Assembly: GCA_039208735.1 (NCBI GenBank)
Contig: JBCCQY010000048.1
Coordinates: forward strand, 1-60,304
Direction of reading: 5' to 3'
Length of the DNA: 60,304 bases
Source of the DNA: Myxococcota bacterium
GTDB taxonomy: Bacteria; Myxococcota_A; UBA796; GCA-2862545
Shown: positions 2,358 through 10,966 of the stretch, one piece after another
Numbering within the stretch: position 1 is the first letter of the stretch
How the letters are laid out: the number at the start of each line of letters is the position of its first letter
Translations under genes and position numbers: made by a program
The notes under the pieces: model-generated
Seen by the model: only the letters and a program-made list of their open reading frames with translations
What the model was told of the DNA's origin: nothing
The model's database searches: none

Positions 2358-3404
2358 ATGGGGGGGCTCTGGTGGGGGACGTTGGTCCTCGTTGCATCTG
2401 CTTGGGCTCAGTCTGAAGAGGACGAGTCTCAGTCTGACTCGCAAAGCCAGGGAAGTGGCGCGCCGCCGGCGGAGGTGTCTTCTCGCGTCCGTGGGCTTGC
2501 ACAGCTCAGTACGGCTTTCCTGGTAGGTCCGACCTCGGCCGCCACTTCGGTGACGACAGAGACTGGAACGGTCGAGGTCGGACCTTTCTTTAACCCTCAA
2601 TTGCGTACACAATTGGCCGTTCTCGTCCAGGTTCCGGTGACCAAAACCGTGGACCTGCTCGCCTCCTGGGGGGTCTTTCGGGATCTGACGCTGTGCGACA
2701 CATGCGGCAACGGAACCCAGCCTGGGTTGGGGCGGGCACCGATTGCATCGAGCCGGGATCTGGCCCTGTCGCTGGGACACATCCTGAAAATCGATAAGCA
2801 GCGGTCGTTGCGCATTGCTGTGCAGAACGTGGTGCCTGCCTCGAGAGACTCCTTGCGCTGCAATCCTTTGATCGCGGCGCCCGGGGTGGCGGCCCGCTTC
2901 ACCCAACGCGTCGGAAAACGCACCTCCCTGTGGGCTACCGGAAGTGTGGCTCGACCGATTCACGCCTTTGCGGCAGCGCCAGTCGGACGATGCAGTCGAC
3001 GCCTAACCGATCCCACGGTCGACACCCTGGCCGGGCCGGTCACTCCCACCCCGTGGGCGGGCACGTGGAGGGCTGGAAACAACCCCGCACTCCAGACTTC
3101 TTTGCGGTTGCAGTGGTTCGATCCGCACGCCTTGATCAAAAAGGTTCCCAAGCGACTGCGGACCGTCCTCGCGGTGGGCGTGGAGGCCACGCAAGCACGA
3201 CGGCAATCCACCGAGGGTTCGAAGCGGCCATTGGTGGGGAACGTACCCTTGCGCATGGCGGTGGGGTGGACCACGACCAAGCAGATCGATCTTCAGTTGT
3301 CTGTCGCGAATCAAACCCCCACGCTGGTGGCGGATGGCGCCGGAAATCTCGCCGCCCTGCCCGCTCGCACCACCACCACCCTGTCGGCCATCGGCCGATT
3401 CTGA
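2358..3404 (+). CDS. Secreted hypothetical protein, probable outer-membrane beta-barrel
   Basis: GGAGG RBS, signal peptide ending ASAWA, alternating beta-strand pattern and C-terminal Phe (TTLSAIGRF). Confidence 0.6.
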   Translation: MGGLWWGTLVLVASAWAQSEEDESQSDSQSQGSGAPPAEVSSRVRGLAQLSTAFLVGPTSAATSVTTETGTVEVGPFFNPQLRTQLAVLVQVPVTKTVDLLASWGVFRDLTLCDTCGNGTQPGLGRAPIASSRDLALSLGHILKIDKQRSLRIAVQNVVPASRDSLRCNPLIAAPGVAARFTQRVGKRTSLWATGSVARPIHAFAAAPVGRCSRRLTDPTVDTLAGPVTPTPWAGTWRAGNNPALQTSLRLQWFDPHALIKKVPKRLRTVLAVGVEATQARRQSTEGSKRPLVGNVPLRMAVGWTTTKQIDLQLSVANQTPTLVADGAGNLAALPARTTTTLSAIGRF

Positions 3405-3423
3405 CACCCCATCTGGAGGGATC

Positions 3424-6400
3424 ATGTGGCCACTACTAGTGGTGGCGACAGCCATGTTGGGCTGTCGACCGCGCACCATTGACACCGTGCAACCTGGTGC
3501 CGTCGCAAAGTCGGCGTTCGACGGAGAGTGGTTTTGGCGCCGCACCGTCACGGAGGTGCCGTACGGCACGAGTTCGACCTTTGCTGGTGCCACCGACGAA
3601 CTCGAACGCATCGTCTGGCAGATCGAAGAAGATGTGTTGCTCGGATACCGCTCGTACCCCAATGTAGACGCGACGGTCGAAGTGAGCAAAAATGGGCATT
3701 ATGGAGCCCCGCTCCTTGTCTTTCCCATCGAAAAACACTTCGACATTCGGCGGGATTACGACCGACGAACCGGGGAAGAGGGCAACGTCATCGTTGAAAA
3801 TACTGAGGCATCCTGGACAGATCGGGAATACCTCCGGGTGGACTGGTCCCAGAATCTGGCTGACGTTCGCTTTTCCGTCGCGGGTCTCGATGCCAGCGTG
3901 CTCGGATACGCCAGCACCGACGGTGCTTCGGCCCCCGTGTTCGACGATTCAGATGCAGACGGCATCATCGACTCGATGCTGGTCGATCAGCGAGTCCTGC
4001 TCGAGCCTGATACCACCCGGCTCCCCGGGTTTGGCGATGTGCCGGTCTGCCTGTTTTACGGACAGGCCCAGGTCGAGTGTGCGGCGAGTGAAGTCACGGT
4101 TCGACACTCGTTCATTCGCACGGAGGGCCGCGCTGCCGTCGAGGGCCTCGCCTACAACGACCGGTTCATGGAAACCTTTGGCTACTTTCTCTCCGATCGA
4201 CTCGCCTTCGATCCCGCGTACGGCCTCGTTCACCCCAACCGGACCCGCTACGCCAACCGTCATCCCTTGTTCGCCCAGACCTACCAGACGGACGAGCTTG
4301 GCCGCATGCTCTGTCAAGGAGCGGGGATGACGGCCCCCTGTGACACGATGACGGCGGACCAAGAGCCTCGCGTGCTCGAGTTAGCGGTGTCCGACCGGCC
4401 GGTACGACCCATCGTCTACCACGCCGGACCTGGCTTTCCGGCCGATCTCATCGAGCCCATGCAGCGCGTGGCGGAAGAGTGGAACCGGCCGTTGGCCGAT
4501 TCGATCAATGGTTTACGCTATTGGGACTGCATCGATCGCGGCCGTCGGGAGCGGGTGTGTGAAGGGCTGCGCGATCCTGACCTGCAGGCCTTTGTCTTTT
4601 GTCCCAACAACCCATCGTTGCCGACCGATCCAGCCGTTTGCAACACGGACCACACCGGGCCTGAACATCGTCCAGATGGCGTTCCCGATAAAGTCCAGCT
4701 CGGCGACTTGCGCTACTCCATCGCCCATGTGTTCACCGAGCCCCAGCTCTCCTCTCCCTTTGGTTACGGTCCTTCCGCGGCCGATCCACTGGGGTCCGTG
4801 TTGCCGTTGGCCGACGGAGCCCGGCTGGGCCTCGGGGCGGGTGAGATCGTAAGCGGAACCGCGTTTGTCTATGGCCACGTGCTCGAACGGGTCTCGCATC
4901 AGGTCGCCGACCTCGTGCAGCTCCTGAACGGTGAACTCGACCCGACGACGTTCATCGACGGCGAGGACGTGACCGCGTGGGTCGAGGCCCAGCGCACGGG
5001 AAGCGCGACCTCCCTGTCCCAGACGGCCTCGGGCGACGGATCCGGGCCTGCGTGGAGTACCGACCGCGTGACCGCGCGTCTGAACCGCATCTCCAACGGA
5101 CTCGCGCCTCAGTTCGCGTCGCTCCATGACCTGCCCCGACCGACCACCCCCGCCGAAATGCAGACCTTCCTCGCCCAGGCGAGCCAGGTGATGCAGCAGT
5201 CGGGCTCGTTCGGCGCAGGGCAGGCGGGCGCCCATCGCGCGCTCGACCGTCTCATCGAGAGTGACCTCACCGAGGTCATGTGGAACGCGGAGACCATTGG
5301 ACTGCATGGGTTTGACCCCACTGCGGTAGCGCCCGAGGAGCTTGCCGAGCACCGTCCCCTCGACTTGCTCGACCCTGACCGGGTCGCTGAGCGCGAAGCA
5401 GGCCGGGTGTTGGCCGGCCAGCATGCGGTCGACTTCCACGATGATGCGGCCTTTGCCGACTCCACCCTCATCGGATTGGCGAAGGACTACCAGGACCGTG
5501 GGCTTTCGTACGACGAAATCGTGGCCGATGTTCGCCGGGAATTGTTCGTCGAAGTCATGCTCCATGAGGTGGGGCACACCCTTGGGTTGCGCCATAACTT
5601 CGCGGCAAGCTTCGATGCCCTCAACTACCGTCCCGAATATTGGGAATTGCGTCAGTTGGACGGGACCGTAGCCCCTCGTCATGTGGATCCCGAGTCGCCA
5701 GCGGAACTCGAAGGGGGCATTCGGCAGTACCAATACAGCTCGGTGATGGACTACCACGGCAGCTCGGCGACCGGTTGGGCGGGTCTTGGTCATTACGACG
5801 AGGCGGCCGTGAAGTTTGGGTACGCAGGTCTCGTCGAGGTCTTTGACCAGGTGCCGGCCCGACCCGCCGTCGACGGCATTCCCAACGAGGTGGCCCTCAT
5901 TTACTGGGCTGCGTTCAACGACTCCAACCTGTTCCCTTCGCCGGTCCTCACACGCACCTCCGACAATTCGTTCATCCCAATGCATTACACCCAGTTGCCC
6001 GACATCGTGGGGGACTTTGAAGCCCGTGTAGACGTGCCGATCGATTGGCTGGCGCCGGTGCTATCTGACACCGTGTCGTTTTCGGAAGGGCTTGCGGTCA
6101 ACCGCAATGAAGGCGGGGCTCCCTTCGGGGCTCCTGCGGTGCCCTACCGCTTTTGCTCCGACGAGTTTGCTGTGGGCGTGACGTGTGCGCGATTCGATCA
6201 GGGGGCCGACCCCTACGAGTCCCATCAGTTCCTCTTTGAGCGCTACGCAAACGACTACGTGCTCCGCAATTTTGCTCGTCAGCGCTACGGATTTGGCAAC
6301 ACCCCGGCTTACGTTTCCCGGCTCCATGATCGGACCTTCGAGCCCCTGCGCACCTGGCAGCGCTACTACGCCCTGTTCCACGGCATCTTCGATGTGGAAG

Positions 6401-7347
6401 GGGACCCTCTGGCCGCCGATTTCTTCGCGGATGACATCGGCTTTGGCGGTTGGACGGCCGCGACCGACGATAGCTTCCGATTCCTGGTCCAGACGGTGAC
6501 CCGGCCCGAGCCTGGCCCGCACGGGTTGACGGAGCGGCCTGACGGGGTCGAGATGTACACGCCATTGGTGGGTGGCGAGTTGAACGTCGAACTCATCGAT
6601 GGTGCCTACTACGAGTCCGAGTGGGATTTCTCGAGTGGCTACCACTGGTTTGAACGCCAGTCGCGGATCGGGAGCTACTTCGATCGCATGCTTGCCCTGA
6701 TGACGCTGACGAACACTGCGTCGTACAACTTCATCGGCTACGATACCTCCATCGACCCGCGGGCGTACGCCATTGGCTTTCAGGACTTGTACCGCGACCC
6801 ACTGGCACTGGTACTTGGGGAGCTCATGGCCGACGAAGCCGACCGCCTGGCTCCCATCATGACGCATACCGGCCTCATGTATCCCGACCCGCTCGACCCC
6901 ACGCTGGCGTGGCCGCCCACCAACGCGTCGGTGGTGCAGCCCGCGGCGTACTGGCTGGTGCAGTACGATGCCGGCCTCTTCGGCAAAGCACTGTTGTCGC
7001 ATGGCTACGACCGGAGTTTCATCAATCGTTCGCGGCTGTTTGTGGAAGGTACAGGCGATGCGGTGGAGCCCGGGCCTGGTCAAGCCACCGTCTCGTTCGA
7101 CGATCCGGTATCGGGAAAAACCTGGGTGGCGTGGTCTGCCCCGTGGCTCGGTGACGATGGGGAGCCGGTCCTCGATGCGGATGGAGCGCCCATCGAACTC
7201 GGCAGCTCGGCGCGCTTGCTCCTGAAAGCCCAGCGCGTCGCGGAACGGTGTGAGACCGAGCCTGCGGCCTGCACGGAACTGCAGCGAATCAGTGCCGACC
7301 TCGACCTGCACCTCGCGGCCTACCGAGCGTTCGACGCCGCGCCGTAG
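3424..7347 (+). CDS. Large lipoprotein zinc-dependent metalloprotease (met-zincin, EcxA/DUF4953-like), about 1307 aa
   Basis: GGAGG then ATG at 3424. Lipobox AMLG-C, HEVGHTLGLRHNF zinc motif, Met-turn YSSVMDY and PYRFCSD. Confidence 0.88.
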   Translation: MWPLLVVATAMLGCRPRTIDTVQPGAVAKSAFDGEWFWRRTVTEVPYGTSSTFAGATDELERIVWQIEEDVLLGYRSYPNVDATVEVSKNGHYGAPLLVFPIEKHFDIRRDYDRRTGEEGNVIVENTEASWTDREYLRVDWSQNLADVRFSVAGLDASVLGYASTDGASAPVFDDSDADGIIDSMLVDQRVLLEPDTTRLPGFGDVPVCLFYGQAQVECAASEVTVRHSFIRTEGRAAVEGLAYNDRFMETFGYFLSDRLAFDPAYGLVHPNRTRYANRHPLFAQTYQTDELGRMLCQGAGMTAPCDTMTADQEPRVLELAVSDRPVRPIVYHAGPGFPADLIEPMQRVAEEWNRPLADSINGLRYWDCIDRGRRERVCEGLRDPDLQAFVFCPNNPSLPTDPAVCNTDHTGPEHRPDGVPDKVQLGDLRYSIAHVFTEPQLSSPFGYGPSAADPLGSVLPLADGARLGLGAGEIVSGTAFVYGHVLERVSHQVADLVQLLNGELDPTTFIDGEDVTAWVEAQRTGSATSLSQTASGDGSGPAWSTDRVTARLNRISNGLAPQFASLHDLPRPTTPAEMQTFLAQASQVMQQSGSFGAGQAGAHRALDRLIESDLTEVMWNAETIGLHGFDPTAVAPEELAEHRPLDLLDPDRVAEREAGRVLAGQHAVDFHDDAAFADSTLIGLAKDYQDRGLSYDEIVADVRRELFVEVMLHEVGHTLGLRHNFAASFDALNYRPEYWELRQLDGTVAPRHVDPESPAELEGGIRQYQYSSVMDYHGSSATGWAGLGHYDEAAVKFGYAGLVEVFDQVPARPAVDGIPNEVALIYWAAFNDSNLFPSPVLTRTSDNSFIPMHYTQLPDIVGDFEARVDVPIDWLAPVLSDTVSFSEGLAVNRNEGGAPFGAPAVPYRFCSDEFAVGVTCARFDQGADPYESHQFLFERYANDYVLRNFARQRYGFGNTPAYVSRLHDRTFEPLRTWQRYYALFHGIFDVEGDPLAADFFADDIGFGGWTAATDDSFRFLVQTVTRPEPGPHGLTERPDGVEMYTPLVGGELNVELIDGAYYESEWDFSSGYHWFERQSRIGSYFDRMLALMTLTNTASYNFIGYDTSIDPRAYAIGFQDLYRDPLALVLGELMADEADRLAPIMTHTGLMYPDPLDPTLAWPPTNASVVQPAAYWLVQYDAGLFGKALLSHGYDRSFINRSRLFVEGTGDAVEPGPGQATVSFDDPVSGKTWVAWSAPWLGDDGEPVLDADGAPIELGSSARLLLKAQRVAERCETEPAACTELQRISADLDLHLAAYRAFDAAP

Positions 7348-7393
7348 ACATCGTCGCAGGGGACGCGTACCGTCGAGGCACGCGGAGGTTTGC

Positions 7394-8800
7394 TTGTCCC
7401 TGACCCATGATGGGGCGCTTCGCCTGGCCGACTTTGGCACAGGCGAGCTCCTCAAAACCACTCAGAGCCTGTGTCCCCAATGCCTTGAGCGCATCCCCGC
7501 CGACGTGCGGCGCCGGGGAGGTGAGGTTTGGATGGACAAGGTGTGTCCCGACCACGGGCCGTTCAGCGCGAAGCTGGCCTCGGACGAGGCGCACTACTAC
7601 CAGCACGACCCACGGCTCGACTCGGTCGGGGGGTGCTGTGGCCCGGGTCAGCACTGTGGCGACCAAGTCGCGAACCACAGTTGCAACATGCTCATCGAGA
7701 TCACCCAGCGTTGCAACCTCACCTGTCCGACTTGCTACGCAGATTCGAGCCCGGAAAAGCTCGAGACCATGCCCTTCGAACGCTTCACCGCATTGGTCGA
7801 CGAGCTGCTCGCAAAGGGCAAGGGGGATGCAGACCTCATCCAGCTGTCGGGCGGCGAGCCGACGCTGCATCCCGATCTCTTTGCGATGATCGACTACGCG
7901 CTCGAGCGTGGAGTGCGGCAGGTCTACATCAATACGAACGGGATTAAACTGGCCAACCGTGGGTTTGTCGAGCGGTTGGCGGCCCATGGCGACCGGGTCT
8001 CGGTCTACCTGCAGTTCGATGGGCTGAAGCCTTCGACGCTCGATCTGCTACGGGGCCGGCGATCGCTTGTCGACACAAAACAGCAAGCCCTTGCCCATTG
8101 TGAAGCGGTGGGATTGAACACGGTGCCGGTGGTCACGTTGGCCAATGGCATCAATGATGATGAGCTGGGGGACATTCTTGAGGTGGCTCTGGCTCACCCC
8201 AGGGCCGTGCAGAAGGTGATGATCCAGCCTGCGATGTATTCGGGTCGCTACGACAACCCCCGGCTCGTCGAACGCCTCACGGTGGCAGATGTTGCCAAGA
8301 AGATCGCGTCCCAGACCGAAGGCCTGTGGATCGAAGATGACTTTGGGCCCATTCCTTGCTCGGACCCCAACTGTTTTTCGATGGCCGTGGCCTTGCGCAC
8401 GCCCGATGGGTTGTTGCCCGTCTCGCGGTACTTCCCTCGCTACGCGACCTGGTCCGAAGAGGCAAACATCGGCATGATCAGCTCGGTAAGCGACACGTTC
8501 GACAATCCCCAACAACTGTCTTCCGCGCTGCAATGGGCTCTGAGCACGGGGGCTCTCGAGTCGCTCGATGAGGCGGCGGTGGATCGGCTCCTCGACGCGG
8601 TCATGGCCTGGCAGACCGAGCAAGCGACGGATCGTCCCTTCCAGGGCATGTTCGCGATTGGGATCAAGCCCTTCATGGATGCGTACACCTTCGACCAAGA
8701 CCGCATCGACAAGTGCTGCGTGCACATCATTGCGCAGGATGGCACCCCGGTGAGCTTCTGTGAGTACAACGCGTTGCATCGTCCTACGGGGAGGGGTTGA
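7394..8800 (+). CDS. Radical SAM protein of the Tes/GDGT-MAS (MJ0619) family
   Basis: GGAGG at 7384 and TTG at 7394. N-terminal SLCPQC...VCPDHG rubredoxin-like site, CNLTCPTC rSAM motif, SGGEPT, YLQFDG, PCSDPNC and C-terminal FMDAYTFDQDRIDKCCVH...FCEYN. Confidence 0.85.
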   Translation: MSLTHDGALRLADFGTGELLKTTQSLCPQCLERIPADVRRRGGEVWMDKVCPDHGPFSAKLASDEAHYYQHDPRLDSVGGCCGPGQHCGDQVANHSCNMLIEITQRCNLTCPTCYADSSPEKLETMPFERFTALVDELLAKGKGDADLIQLSGGEPTLHPDLFAMIDYALERGVRQVYINTNGIKLANRGFVERLAAHGDRVSVYLQFDGLKPSTLDLLRGRRSLVDTKQQALAHCEAVGLNTVPVVTLANGINDDELGDILEVALAHPRAVQKVMIQPAMYSGRYDNPRLVERLTVADVAKKIASQTEGLWIEDDFGPIPCSDPNCFSMAVALRTPDGLLPVSRYFPRYATWSEEANIGMISSVSDTFDNPQQLSSALQWALSTGALESLDEAAVDRLLDAVMAWQTEQATDRPFQGMFAIGIKPFMDAYTFDQDRIDKCCVHIIAQDGTPVSFCEYNALHRPTGRG

Positions 8801-9651
8801 TGTCCGAGGCGCTGGATGCCGCGGCCTGTTGTGCCGCCTTCTACGAGCAAGACTGGGTCCGGATGTTGATGGGGGACCACTTCCATCCTGGGGGAGAGCC
8901 CCTCACCCGGCGGCTCATCGACGATCTCGCGCTGCAACCCGGCGATCGGGTACTCGATCTGGCGTGTGGCACCGGTACGACCGCGCGGATGCTCGCCCAG
9001 GGTTGGGACGTCGAGGTCATCGGGGTGGATGTGTCGAGGGCCAACCTGGAGCGAGCCACGGTCGGCGCTGAGCAACAGGGGATCACCAAGGTCGCCTTCC
9101 TCCCGGGCCGGGCTGCCGATCTACCGGTGGGTGAGGCACAGTTTGATGCGGTGATGGTGGAATGTGCAGTTTCAACCTTTGACAACAAGCCGGGGGTGGC
9201 GGCCGAGATCGCACGTGTCCTGAAGCCTGGGGGACGGCTCGCGATCAGCGATATGGCTGTGTACGGAACCATTCCTGAGAATTTGGCAACCTTCGGCCAT
9301 GGCTGGGCCTGCGTCGACGATGCATTGACCGTGGAAGGCTACCGTGCCTTGTTCGAGGGGGCAGGATTCACGGTGTTGGCTGAACACGACGAGAGCGACG
9401 GCCTGAACCAAATGCTGCTTGAAGTCAAGAAGAAGCTGCTGTTGGCGGGGCTCGGTGGCGCCTCAGGGTGGCTGTCGGAGCTGCAGGTAGACTTGCCCAC
9501 GCTGCGAGGCCTCATCGCCAAAGCGAAACAGGTGGTGGCCGACGGTAAGGTTCGGTACACCCGCCTTGTGTTCGCCCACGGGACGCCCCGATCGGAGGGG
9601 CCGAGCGCCAAGCGAGAGGGGGCGTGTGACCCAACGACCGGGTGTTGCTGA
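8800..9651 (+). CDS. Class I SAM-dependent methyltransferase with terminal Cys pairs
   Basis: TGATG overlap with the rSAM stop. HPGG, VLDLACGTG (motif I) and RVLKPGG. N-terminal ACCAAFY and C-terminal ACDPTTGCC. Confidence 0.88.
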   Translation: MSEALDAAACCAAFYEQDWVRMLMGDHFHPGGEPLTRRLIDDLALQPGDRVLDLACGTGTTARMLAQGWDVEVIGVDVSRANLERATVGAEQQGITKVAFLPGRAADLPVGEAQFDAVMVECAVSTFDNKPGVAAEIARVLKPGGRLAISDMAVYGTIPENLATFGHGWACVDDALTVEGYRALFEGAGFTVLAEHDESDGLNQMLLEVKKKLLLAGLGGASGWLSELQVDLPTLRGLIAKAKQVVADGKVRYTRLVFAHGTPRSEGPSAKREGACDPTTGCC

Positions 9652-10535
9652 TGCTTTGGATGGGGCTCCTTTCGTGCGGCAACGTTCAGCCCATCGACGG
9701 GGACCCTCCCATTCGGAAGGGTGGGCATCCTCCACCCTACGAGCACGCCGGGCCACCGGTGTGGGTGACGCCAGAGCCCATCGACCCGGTTCAAGGCGAC
9801 ATCTGGAGTTCCGCAGCGGGAACCTTGGTCTGGATACCGGACGGGACCTTCACGATGGGGTCGCCCCGGAGCGAGTGGGGCCGATACCCCGACGAGCAGC
9901 TTCACGACGTGACCCTCTCCGGGTTTTGGATGGCCCGGACCGAGGTCACGCAAGGGTTGTGGACCGAGGTGATGGGAGAGAACCCGAGTGGCCAGTTCGC
10001 CGACTGCGGGGATCAGTGTCCGGTGTCTGCGGTGAATTGGTTCATGGCCCTCGAGTTCCTCAATCAGCTTTCGGAGCGTGAAGGGCTTCCGCCGGCCTAC
10101 CAGATGGATGGCGAAACCGTCACTTGGGACCGAACTTCGCCTGGCTACCGTTTGCCCACCGAAGCGGAGTGGGAGTACGCTGCGCACGGCGGAGAAGACT
10201 ACTTGTACGCAGGATCGGACGCCGAACTCGACGTGGGTTGGGTGCGGATCGTGTGGGGCCCTCGCGTGGTCTGTCGCAAGCGAATCAATGGCTTTGGACT
10301 ATGCGACATGTCGGGCAACGTCTGGGAGTGGGTGTGGGACCGCTACGACCGGCAATACCCCACCAATGCCGTCGTCAATCCGACCGGCCCCGAGACGGGC
10401 GACCTCCGCTGCGTTCGTGGTGCGAGCTGGTACACTCGGTTGCGGCGAGCCCGCATCGCGGCACGGTGGGCAATGCTCCCTGACACCCGCAATGATGACC
10501 TTGCGCTCCGAATCGCCAAGAATCGACGACCCTAG
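9651..10535 (+). CDS. Formylglycine-generating-enzyme (SUMF1/FGE-sulfatase) domain lipoprotein
   Basis: TGATG overlap and lipobox LLS-C. Motifs GTFTMGSP, TEVTQ, YRLPTEAEWEYAA, NGFGLCDMSGNVWEW and RGASW. Confidence 0.88.
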   Translation: MLWMGLLSCGNVQPIDGDPPIRKGGHPPPYEHAGPPVWVTPEPIDPVQGDIWSSAAGTLVWIPDGTFTMGSPRSEWGRYPDEQLHDVTLSGFWMARTEVTQGLWTEVMGENPSGQFADCGDQCPVSAVNWFMALEFLNQLSEREGLPPAYQMDGETVTWDRTSPGYRLPTEAEWEYAAHGGEDYLYAGSDAELDVGWVRIVWGPRVVCRKRINGFGLCDMSGNVWEWVWDRYDRQYPTNAVVNPTGPETGDLRCVRGASWYTRLRRARIAARWAMLPDTRNDDLALRIAKNRRP

Positions 10536-10966
10536 GCGAGTTTTGTTGGAACGGCACCCTCGGGACCGGTGATCGCATCGATGACCGAAGCCTCCGCAGG
10601 GCCCAAAGCGCACGTTGTGAAGGTGGGAACGCCGTGGAACTCCGTTCGCCCCGCATCGCGAATGAGGGCGCACGCGATGCCGGCCGCTTCCGCGCGACGG
10701 TGAGCATCGAGGAGGGCGGCCTCGTCCTCGACGGACAGCACGATCTTCGTGAATCGAGAGCGCACCCATTCGCTCATCACGGGAGTGAGGGGGACCACCA
10801 GGGCATCGTCGCTCACCGTTTCACCATCGACGGCCAGCTCCACGCGGTCGCGCGGAAGCTGACGACGAAGGAACACGGCCAGCGATGCGTGAGCGCACTG
10901 GGCGGCGATTTTCCCCTTTCTCATCTTTAGATCGCGCCGGTACAGCAGTACCTGCTTGATGTCCAC
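10532..10966 (-). CDS. pth2: Peptidyl-tRNA hydrolase, Pth2 family
   Basis: KQVLLYRRDLKMRKGKIAAQCAHAS...KIVL...IRDAGRTEFHGVPTFTTCALGP. GTG start at 10966 follows GAGGTG. Confidence 0.9.
   Translation of the reverse strand: MDIKQVLLYRRDLKMRKGKIAAQCAHASLAVFLRRQLPRDRVELAVDGETVSDDALVVPLTPVMSEWVRSRFTKIVLSVEDEAALLDAHRRAEAAGIACALIRDAGRTEFHGVPTFTTCALGPAEASVIDAITGPEGAVPTKLA

Follow-up and report, generated by a model that had tools for sequence, protein, structure and literature searches.

The window analyzed here is a 60,304-nucleotide stretch of the Myxococcota bacterium assembly GCA_039208735.1 (contig JBCCQY010000048.1). It encodes a radical S-adenosylmethionine (SAM) enzyme (positions 7394–8800, forward strand, 468 amino acids) followed directly by a class I SAM methyltransferase (8800–9651, forward strand, 283 amino acids). 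Conserved as a unit, the two genes are nevertheless rare in the host phylum. The radical SAM enzyme is shaped like Tes, the archaeal tetraether synthase also named GDGT-MAS, and yet is not Tes; it belongs to an unnamed clade outside that family, while the nearest models for the methyltransferase are those of DVU_1556 and ArsM. Taking all the evidence together, we regard arsenic chemistry of any kind by the pair as about an even prospect. A narrower reading, which is the best one we can offer and is held only tentatively, is that the pair forms a carbon–arsenic bond on a probably hydrophobic chain and then methylates it to give an arsenolipid-type product.

A conserved gene pair with a Tes fold outside the Tes family

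Both reading frames are open at the coordinates of the original prediction. The radical SAM gene starts with a TTG codon preceded by GGAGG and encodes the Pfam domains PF23545 and PF04055, whereas class I methyltransferase domains are found in its partner; the GC content at third codon positions is 0.77 and 0.75, respectively, and the flanking genes are alike. The TGATG overlap claimed between the TGA stop of the first gene (8798–8800) and the ATG of the second (8800–8802) is present. The overlap alone is weak evidence for a unit because the next gene, which encodes an FGE-sulfatase domain behind a lipoprotein-like start (9651–10535, forward strand) and is not conserved beside the pair, overlaps the methyltransferase stop in the same way (TGATG, with its ATG at 9651). 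Neither that gene, for which 116 loci gave a single opposite-strand match of 30%, nor the flanking met-zincin gene (3334–7347) was accepted as part of the unit, and a promoter and terminator scan of positions 6900–10700 found nothing. A search of sequencing runs turned up no RNA data for the stretch, which carries no information about expression.

It is the conservation of the neighborhood that bears out a two-enzyme unit. A radical SAM enzyme at least 45% identical to that of the window is held by 32 of 80 genome loci, and the methyltransferase adjoins it in 28 of these 32; three of the four misses are cut off by a contig edge, and the fourth (L031) is genuine. Among the 48 loci with 34–38% radical SAM identity, mostly from Bacteroidota, an adjacent methyltransferase is never seen. 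The reverse search placed the radical SAM gene beside 69 of 82 methyltransferase-anchored loci, the 13 misses having fewer than 940 bases upstream. The identities of the two proteins to the window copies also co-vary (Spearman 0.59, n = 73, kin not being independent). Named carriers belong to Myxococcota, Planctomycetota, Verrucomicrobiota, Gammaproteobacteria and Eremiobacterota and include cultured bacteria, namely Pelagicoccus mobilis (L030) and an isolate of Gemmataceae (L002), and the closest named relatives agree with the myxobacterium-like host proposed originally. Within the phylum the methyltransferase occurs in 3 of 301 genomes, in one of the three with a radical SAM enzyme of another Tes-like clade. 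This patchy distribution suggests a mobile accessory cassette.

Two loci deserve separate mention. The radical SAM enzyme at L221 (G280:C11:24118-27298) is of a different Tes-like clade and is accompanied by a DUF547 gene and a methyltransferase of the pair's family, which indicates that the radical SAM partner can be swapped. In genome G320 (L023), the radical SAM enzyme is 75% identical and the ArsS copies are 84–85% identical to those of the host genome, and the Enterobacteriaceae title of that entry is probably wrong.

GDGT-MAS (MJ0619) is the only close solved relative of the radical SAM enzyme (phmmer E value 4e-61; profile search E value 4e-80). A predicted model of the enzyme (pLDDT 82, pTM 0.87) points to the same fold, matching 7TOL with a Foldseek E value of 2.7e-33 and a TM score of 0.72, and 7TOM with a Z score of 36.2 and an rmsd of 3.2 over 401 aligned residues; the next family reaches a Z score of 19. 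In Tes a helical subdomain holds the second lipid; its counterpart here is of like size, with 75 versus 77 residues and a hydrophobic fraction of 0.43 in both.

The scores and the tree nonetheless place the enzyme elsewhere. It scored 246 bits on the Tes model NF045702 (cut-off 450) and 288 bits on the TrsS model NF045646, which is its best-scoring NCBIfam model but has a cut-off of 490. On the ArsS model TIGR04167 it reached 38 bits (cut-off 300), and its C terminus is not the RCCLKC tail of ArsS. Membership in Tes, TrsS and ArsS was thus rejected on curated cut-offs. For comparison, archaeal-type Tes proteins reach 385 bits on the TrsS model, and no protein above the TrsS cut-off was found among the 301 phylum genomes. 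In a quick 45-row tree, drawn from 79 aligned rows of Tes-like proteins with a midpoint root only and including no TrsS, Mss, ArsS or ArsL, the 12 clade rows make up one side of a branch (SH-aLRT 100), and Tes together with three bacterial Tes-proximal rows forms a separate branch (SH-aLRT 100). The Tes-like fold of the original prediction is supported, but by the test which that prediction set itself, clustering with the Tes family, the protein falls outside, in both the tree and the NF045702 score. The tie to a methyltransferase is a further difference from Tes.

The metal-site motifs listed in the original prediction (CxxC...CxxH, CxxxCxxC, CC..H...FC.YN and an altered CPxxCGLCxxH) were all recovered, on the forward strand. 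The rubredoxin-type site C27xxC30-x20-C51xxH54 (7472–7555) has the spacing of Tes C9/C12/C33/H36, and the radical SAM motif C107xxxC111xxC114 lies at 7712–7735. Between them, the N-terminal auxiliary site is remodelled to C81C82-x5-C88-x6-H95-S-C97 (7634–7684), the residues in place of CPxxCGLCxxH being GGC81C82GPGQHC88GDQVANH95SC97. The spacing of the Tes ligands (C73, C77, C80 and a His) is changed here, leaving C81, C82, C88 and H95 available. The site is variable in deeper clade members (C88 is Cys in 51 of about 81 aligned loci), and the model is poor in this region, with pLDDT under 50 for residues 80–96.

The C-terminal half carries C322-S-D-P-N-C327 (8357–8374) and C441C442VH444I...FC456 (8714–8761), the latter within the pattern C441C442xH444...FC456EYN. 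Residues were compared in an alignment of 79 rows containing 18 Tes proteins, 23 clade members and 38 other homologues; the Tes set comprised those of 27 scanned proteins that lie above the NF045702 cut-off, with scores of 474–645 bits. C327, C441 and C456 are Cys in 18/18 Tes and 23/23 clade rows, an invariance that points to them as the probable ligands of the C-terminal cluster. The position of Met439, the labile cluster ligand of GDGT-MAS, is Met in 18/18 Tes proteins and Lys in 23/23 clade members (K425 in the window; 8666–8668), and that of Tyr459 is Tyr in 14/18 and Ile or Val in 23/23 (Ile445 in the window). The clade has also added three cysteines, C97, C322 and C442, which are present in 23/23 members compared with 2, 0 and 2 of the 18 Tes proteins, respectively.

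Other Tes-like enzymes were noted in the course of this comparison. The host genome encodes a second one from another clade (contig C64, G000:C64:20691-22028, L089), which is 33% identical, has the canonical CPxxCGLCxxH and is without the three Tes C-terminal cysteines seen in its clade; the gene before it is a membrane gene that, we assume, resembles Lgt. At four loci in genomes of the host phylum (L224, L228, L229 and L230), two or three divergent Tes-like radical SAM genes lie close together.

Methyltransferase cysteines and companion genes

The methyltransferase comes nearest to the DVU_1556 model NF045667 (138 bits, cut-off 155); membership in both the DVU_1556 and ArsM families was rejected on curated cut-offs. 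Its likeness to ArsM lies in the placement of its cysteines. C122, in an EC motif (9163–9165, forward strand), and C171, in a WxC motif (9310–9312, forward strand), align with the SNC and WLTC cysteines of the host's own ArsM, which in turn align with Cys174 and Cys224 of CmArsM, the pair that binds trivalent arsenicals according to the accessible text of PMC6138428. Both positions are Cys in 112/112 aligned loci. As a control, 12 other methyltransferase matches in the host genome were inspected, and only the true ArsM, which is encoded separately, has both cysteines. A further pair, C10C11 in a CCxxFY motif (8827–8832, forward strand), is Cys in 105/105 and 106/106 aligned loci, respectively, and may stand in for the N-terminal redox pair of ArsM. 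With four invariant cysteines beyond the SAM motif, the enzyme follows the four-Cys plan of ArsM/AS3MT (PDB 4KW7, 5EVJ and 8XT7), from which it differs in having an extra hydrophobic C-terminal helical stretch (residues 198–262, hydrophobic fraction 0.48). The original prediction had noted Cys pairs at both termini of the methyltransferase but not C122 and C171, which are more telling. C10C11 and C282C283 are both present, but only the N-terminal pair is conserved: the Cys-rich tail CDPTTGCC (9625–9648, forward strand) is optional, and under a rough script rule 36 of 112 loci have at least two Cys in the last 22 residues.

Six methyltransferases of the family (L007, L009, L011, L022, L028 and L029) carry a Cys-rich insertion (CCxPGxxCC) between the SAM-binding motifs, and in most of these the Cys tail at the C terminus is missing, as though the Cys-rich arm had changed place. 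Elsewhere in the host genome, an ArsM-like methyltransferase gene (G000:C90:1255-1980, reverse strand) has an in-frame TGA at the Cys224-equivalent position; because the genome also has a tRNA-SeC, this gene probably encodes a selenoprotein.

Two gene families recur as the third gene behind the pair. One encodes a DUF547 protein, a lipoprotein by its N terminus (47/80 metagenome loci and 8/32 genome loci), and the other a flavin disulfide reductase (22/80 and 12/32). At the 48 control loci of another Tes-like clade, the reductase family is represented by one generic match of 29%. The reductase is nearest to the PRK06370 subfamily and falls below the MerA cut-off. The same family is found in 6 of 20 arsS neighborhoods. 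In a 35-row tree, 13 pair-linked reductases and the host copy are sister to seven arsS-linked ones (SH-aLRT 99); seven further pair-linked reductases branch just outside this group, and the pair/arsS reductases are separate from six further flavin disulfide reductases encoded by the host. This reductase occurs in 26 of 151 phylum genomes; 17 of these 26 also have arsS, and the two genes lie within 2.6 kb of each other in 11 of those genomes (seven families). The host reductase is unlinked to the pair (contig C128, G000:C128:7193-8689, L100), and its best non-self match sits directly behind the pair in genome G139. On C128 the reductase lies directly behind a gene for a probable 2-oxoglutarate-dependent oxygenase, so labelled from its sequence, and a gene of that oxygenase family also occurs near the pair in L026.

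Direct links to arsenic genes were seen at two loci. In G302, of a planctomycete lineage, the pair shares an island with selD, the reductase, a bufferin maturase, a VTT-DUF547 gene, a TIGR04282 glycosyltransferase, arsS and an ArsM-domain protein; in L115, arsS is about 5 kb from the pair. At the genome level, 17 of 28 pair genomes carry arsS, versus 30/101 and 63/151 in two phylum samples (Fisher p 0.004 and 0.10, both overstated by kinship). Thus, the organo-metalloid chemistry that was originally offered as an alternative is now better supported, by C122/C171, by the arsS-sister reductase and by the arsS/arsM island; the terminal Cys pairs from which it had been argued are not the grounds.

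The remaining neighbors say less about function. ESM Atlas searches added no function for DUF547; one match (to L026:3215-4066) is a cluster of 554-residue proteins in which DUF547 occurs with a radical SAM domain in 45%, a possible fusion. At 6 of 32 genome loci the gene behind the pair encodes a large membrane protein without a Pfam match, putatively an MMPL-type exporter. A Coq4-like neighbor at nine loci is at least 89% identical among them and was counted as one event.

Proposed chemistry and alternatives

Both ArsS and ArsL couple a carbon radical to As(III); in ArsL a Cys-rich motif holds the As(III), and ArsM then methylates the ArsL product, as described in the accessible text of PMC13598754 and of bioRxiv 10.1101/2024.02.01.577332. 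GDGT-MAS takes a hydrogen from the terminal methyl of a lipid and parks the radical as a C–S bond on its C-terminal cluster (accessible part of PMC9433317). Joining the radical-to-As(III) logic of the former to the chemistry of the latter is what makes the arsenolipid reading our best one, and it leads to a mechanism in which we infer every chemical step. SAM would be cleaved and the 5'-deoxyadenosyl radical would abstract a hydrogen from the terminal methyl group of a chain, acyl or alkyl, lying in a Tes-type tunnel. Trivalent arsenic held on the added cysteines (C97, C322, C442 or the C81C82 loop), instead of a second lipid tail, would then catch the carbon radical, and the C-terminal cluster would accept the spare electron. 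The methyltransferase would bind the resulting R-As(III) at C122/C171 and methylate the arsenic, while C10/C11 would serve, like the N-terminal pair of ArsM, to reduce the As(V) intermediate. Re-reduction of the cysteines could fall to the PRK06370-type flavin disulfide reductase, whose gene lies beside the pair in many relatives and apart from it, on C128, in the host. The product would be an arsenolipid of the dimethylarsinoyl fatty acid or hydrocarbon type. In arsenic fatty acids, the dimethylarsinoyl group stands at the chain end, exactly where Tes attacks. A hydrophobic substrate is suggested by the match of the predicted model to 7TOM and by the retained size and hydrophobicity of the helical subdomain. 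The most specific version, that the pair is a dedicated bacterial arsenolipid synthase in which a Tes-derived radical SAM enzyme welds the end methyl of a fatty chain to arsenic and is served by its own methyltransferase and reductase, is in our judgment doubtful as it stands.

The radical SAM enzyme of the pair differs from the enzymes that provide this logic. In ArsS and ArsL it is a fragment of SAM itself that is added to arsenic (accessible text of PMC13598754 and of bioRxiv 10.1101/2024.02.01.577332), whereas the pair enzyme has the four-site architecture of Tes and would add a separate substrate. What the pair has in common with the ArsL–ArsM (arsinothricin) and ArsS–ArsM (arsenosugar) systems is the combination of a radical SAM enzyme with an As(III) methyltransferase, here a putative one, together with Cys-rich motifs that would bind arsenic, and with arsS loci also the reductase family.

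A number of observations weigh against carbon–arsenic bond formation on a lipid chain. On the side of the enzymes, the helical subdomain is acidic, with a net charge of −8.7 versus +6.7 in Tes (the whole protein is acidic as well), and so fits poorly with a membrane phospholipid substrate. The methyltransferase scored only 105 bits on the ArsM model NF008823 (cut-off 263), and has an invariant HPGG and the N-terminal CC instead of the GCG motif of the ArsM redox pair (Cys44/Cys72), with C10C11 sitting further upstream. In profile searches of the PDB, phosphoethanolamine N-methyltransferases come first (E value 1e-31), ahead of ArsM (E value 4e-18). On the side of the genomic context, neither the reductase nor DUF547 adjoins the pair in the window. 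The gene arsS was seen at just 2 of 114 pair loci; as these two are relatives (84% radical SAM identity), the linkage counts as one event. The island in G302, with its selD and bufferin maturase, is not an arsenic-only one and hints at selenium too. The excess of arsS over the host's own phylum is weak (p about 0.10, kin not being independent), no arsS was detectable in 11 of 28 pair genomes, and an ArsM match at E ≤ 1e-40 was found in 7 of the 28 and in none of the other 21. The 195 neighbor proteins scanned under rough gene calling (91/147 and 104/206 representatives) included no ArsR, Acr3, ArsB or ArsC, and no fatty-acid genes recurred among the scanned pair neighbors. DUF547 was present in 0 of 20 arsS loci of the phylum sample and is not supported as a tie to arsS; it occurs near arsS in 2 of 19 arsS regions from pair-carrying genomes (L234 and L244).

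The hint at selenium leads to the first alternative, in which the element is sulfur or selenium, or a soft element such as antimony or tellurium. The radical SAM enzyme would insert it at an unactivated carbon, thereby releasing what is a mere intermediate in Tes, and the methyltransferase would cap it to give a methylthio or methylseleno product. The C–S intermediate that GDGT-MAS makes with its C-terminal cluster (accessible part of PMC9433317) and the retention of the three aligned cysteines make this conceivable, as do selD in the G302 island and the tRNA-SeC of the host. The pair also resembles in kind the combination of TrsS, a (seleno)protein whose model is the best-scoring NCBIfam model here, with a DVU_1556-family methyltransferase, although it falls below both cut-offs. 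However, a search for selenocysteine found no in-frame TGA at the Cys positions of either protein in 116 loci. A thiol or selenol methyltransferase would presumably need no Cys pair placed as in ArsM, and in the reductase tree the pair-linked copies group as sister to those linked to arsS. We consider this alternative unlikely.

Less likely again is a small water-soluble organoarsenical, in which case the pair would tailor arsenosugar-derived or choline-like compounds and no lipid would be involved. Arsenocholine and arsenobetaine are example end points of such a route. All the arsenic ties described above apply here, including the presence of arsS in 17 of 28 pair genomes, and both the acidic helical subdomain and the phosphoethanolamine N-methyltransferases at the top of the PDB matches would fit such a substrate. 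What counts against it is a Tes-type fold whose lipid-holding helical subdomain has lost neither length nor hydrophobic fraction, and also the 11 of 28 pair genomes with no detectable arsS.

The main inference of the original prediction, that the radical SAM enzyme is a bacterial Tes coupling lipid tails into membrane-spanning lipids that the methyltransferase then methylates, is improbable in light of the family analysis, which puts the enzyme outside Tes by score (246 versus 450 bits) and by tree, even though the fold and three of the four GDGT-MAS metal sites are kept. The residue changes at the active site do not exclude coupling by themselves, since the M439A and Y459F/L variants of GDGT-MAS remain active and neither residue is essential (accessible part of PMC9433317). 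Bacterial Tes homologues have been proposed, without testing, for brGDGTs, glycerol dialkyl glycerol tetraethers of the branched type (accessible part of PMC8941075). Against coupling, the invariant ArsM-type cysteines and the reductase would go unexplained, and a pair present in 3 of 301 genomes is unlike a core membrane trait. Unactivated alkyl carbons are moreover, to our knowledge, beyond the reach of a polar SAM methyltransferase. While the clade falls outside Tes, one bacterial group (L207–L212) branches inside it; its members have the Tes Met and Tyr, are without the N-terminal cluster cysteines and occur in 17 of 23 genomes of one family. Judged by sequence, they appear better candidates for bacterial membrane-spanning lipids than the radical SAM enzyme of the pair.

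Novelty and implications

The design of a radical SAM enzyme with an ArsM-like partner is known in kind; the clade and its likely chemistry are undescribed in the literature searched. That search, which did not reach most subscription journals, found no paper on this pair, and a full-text search combining arsenolipid biosynthesis, radical SAM and fatty acid likewise returned none. We know of no biosynthetic enzymes for arsenolipids. No enzyme is named in the accessible parts of PMC7345539, PMC8787705 and PMC12608789, TrsS is merely listed in that of PMC13188914, and the accessible part of PMC9433317 flags the bacterial homologues of GDGT-MAS as unexplored.

If the proposed chemistry is correct, the pair would provide the first enzymatic route to fatty acids and hydrocarbons that carry arsenic, and its radical SAM enzyme would be the first to join arsenic to carbon that is not from SAM. 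The pair is kept together across many marine and freshwater bacteria, and would point to an enzyme route for the arsenic lipids of the sea. As a candidate of only two, easily expressed genes, it makes the arsenolipid question directly testable. Loose Tes homology searches for brGDGT producers call for caution, as they can count enzymes that are probably doing something else. Whatever the element turns out to be, the pair defines an uncharacterized clade of Tes-like enzymes.

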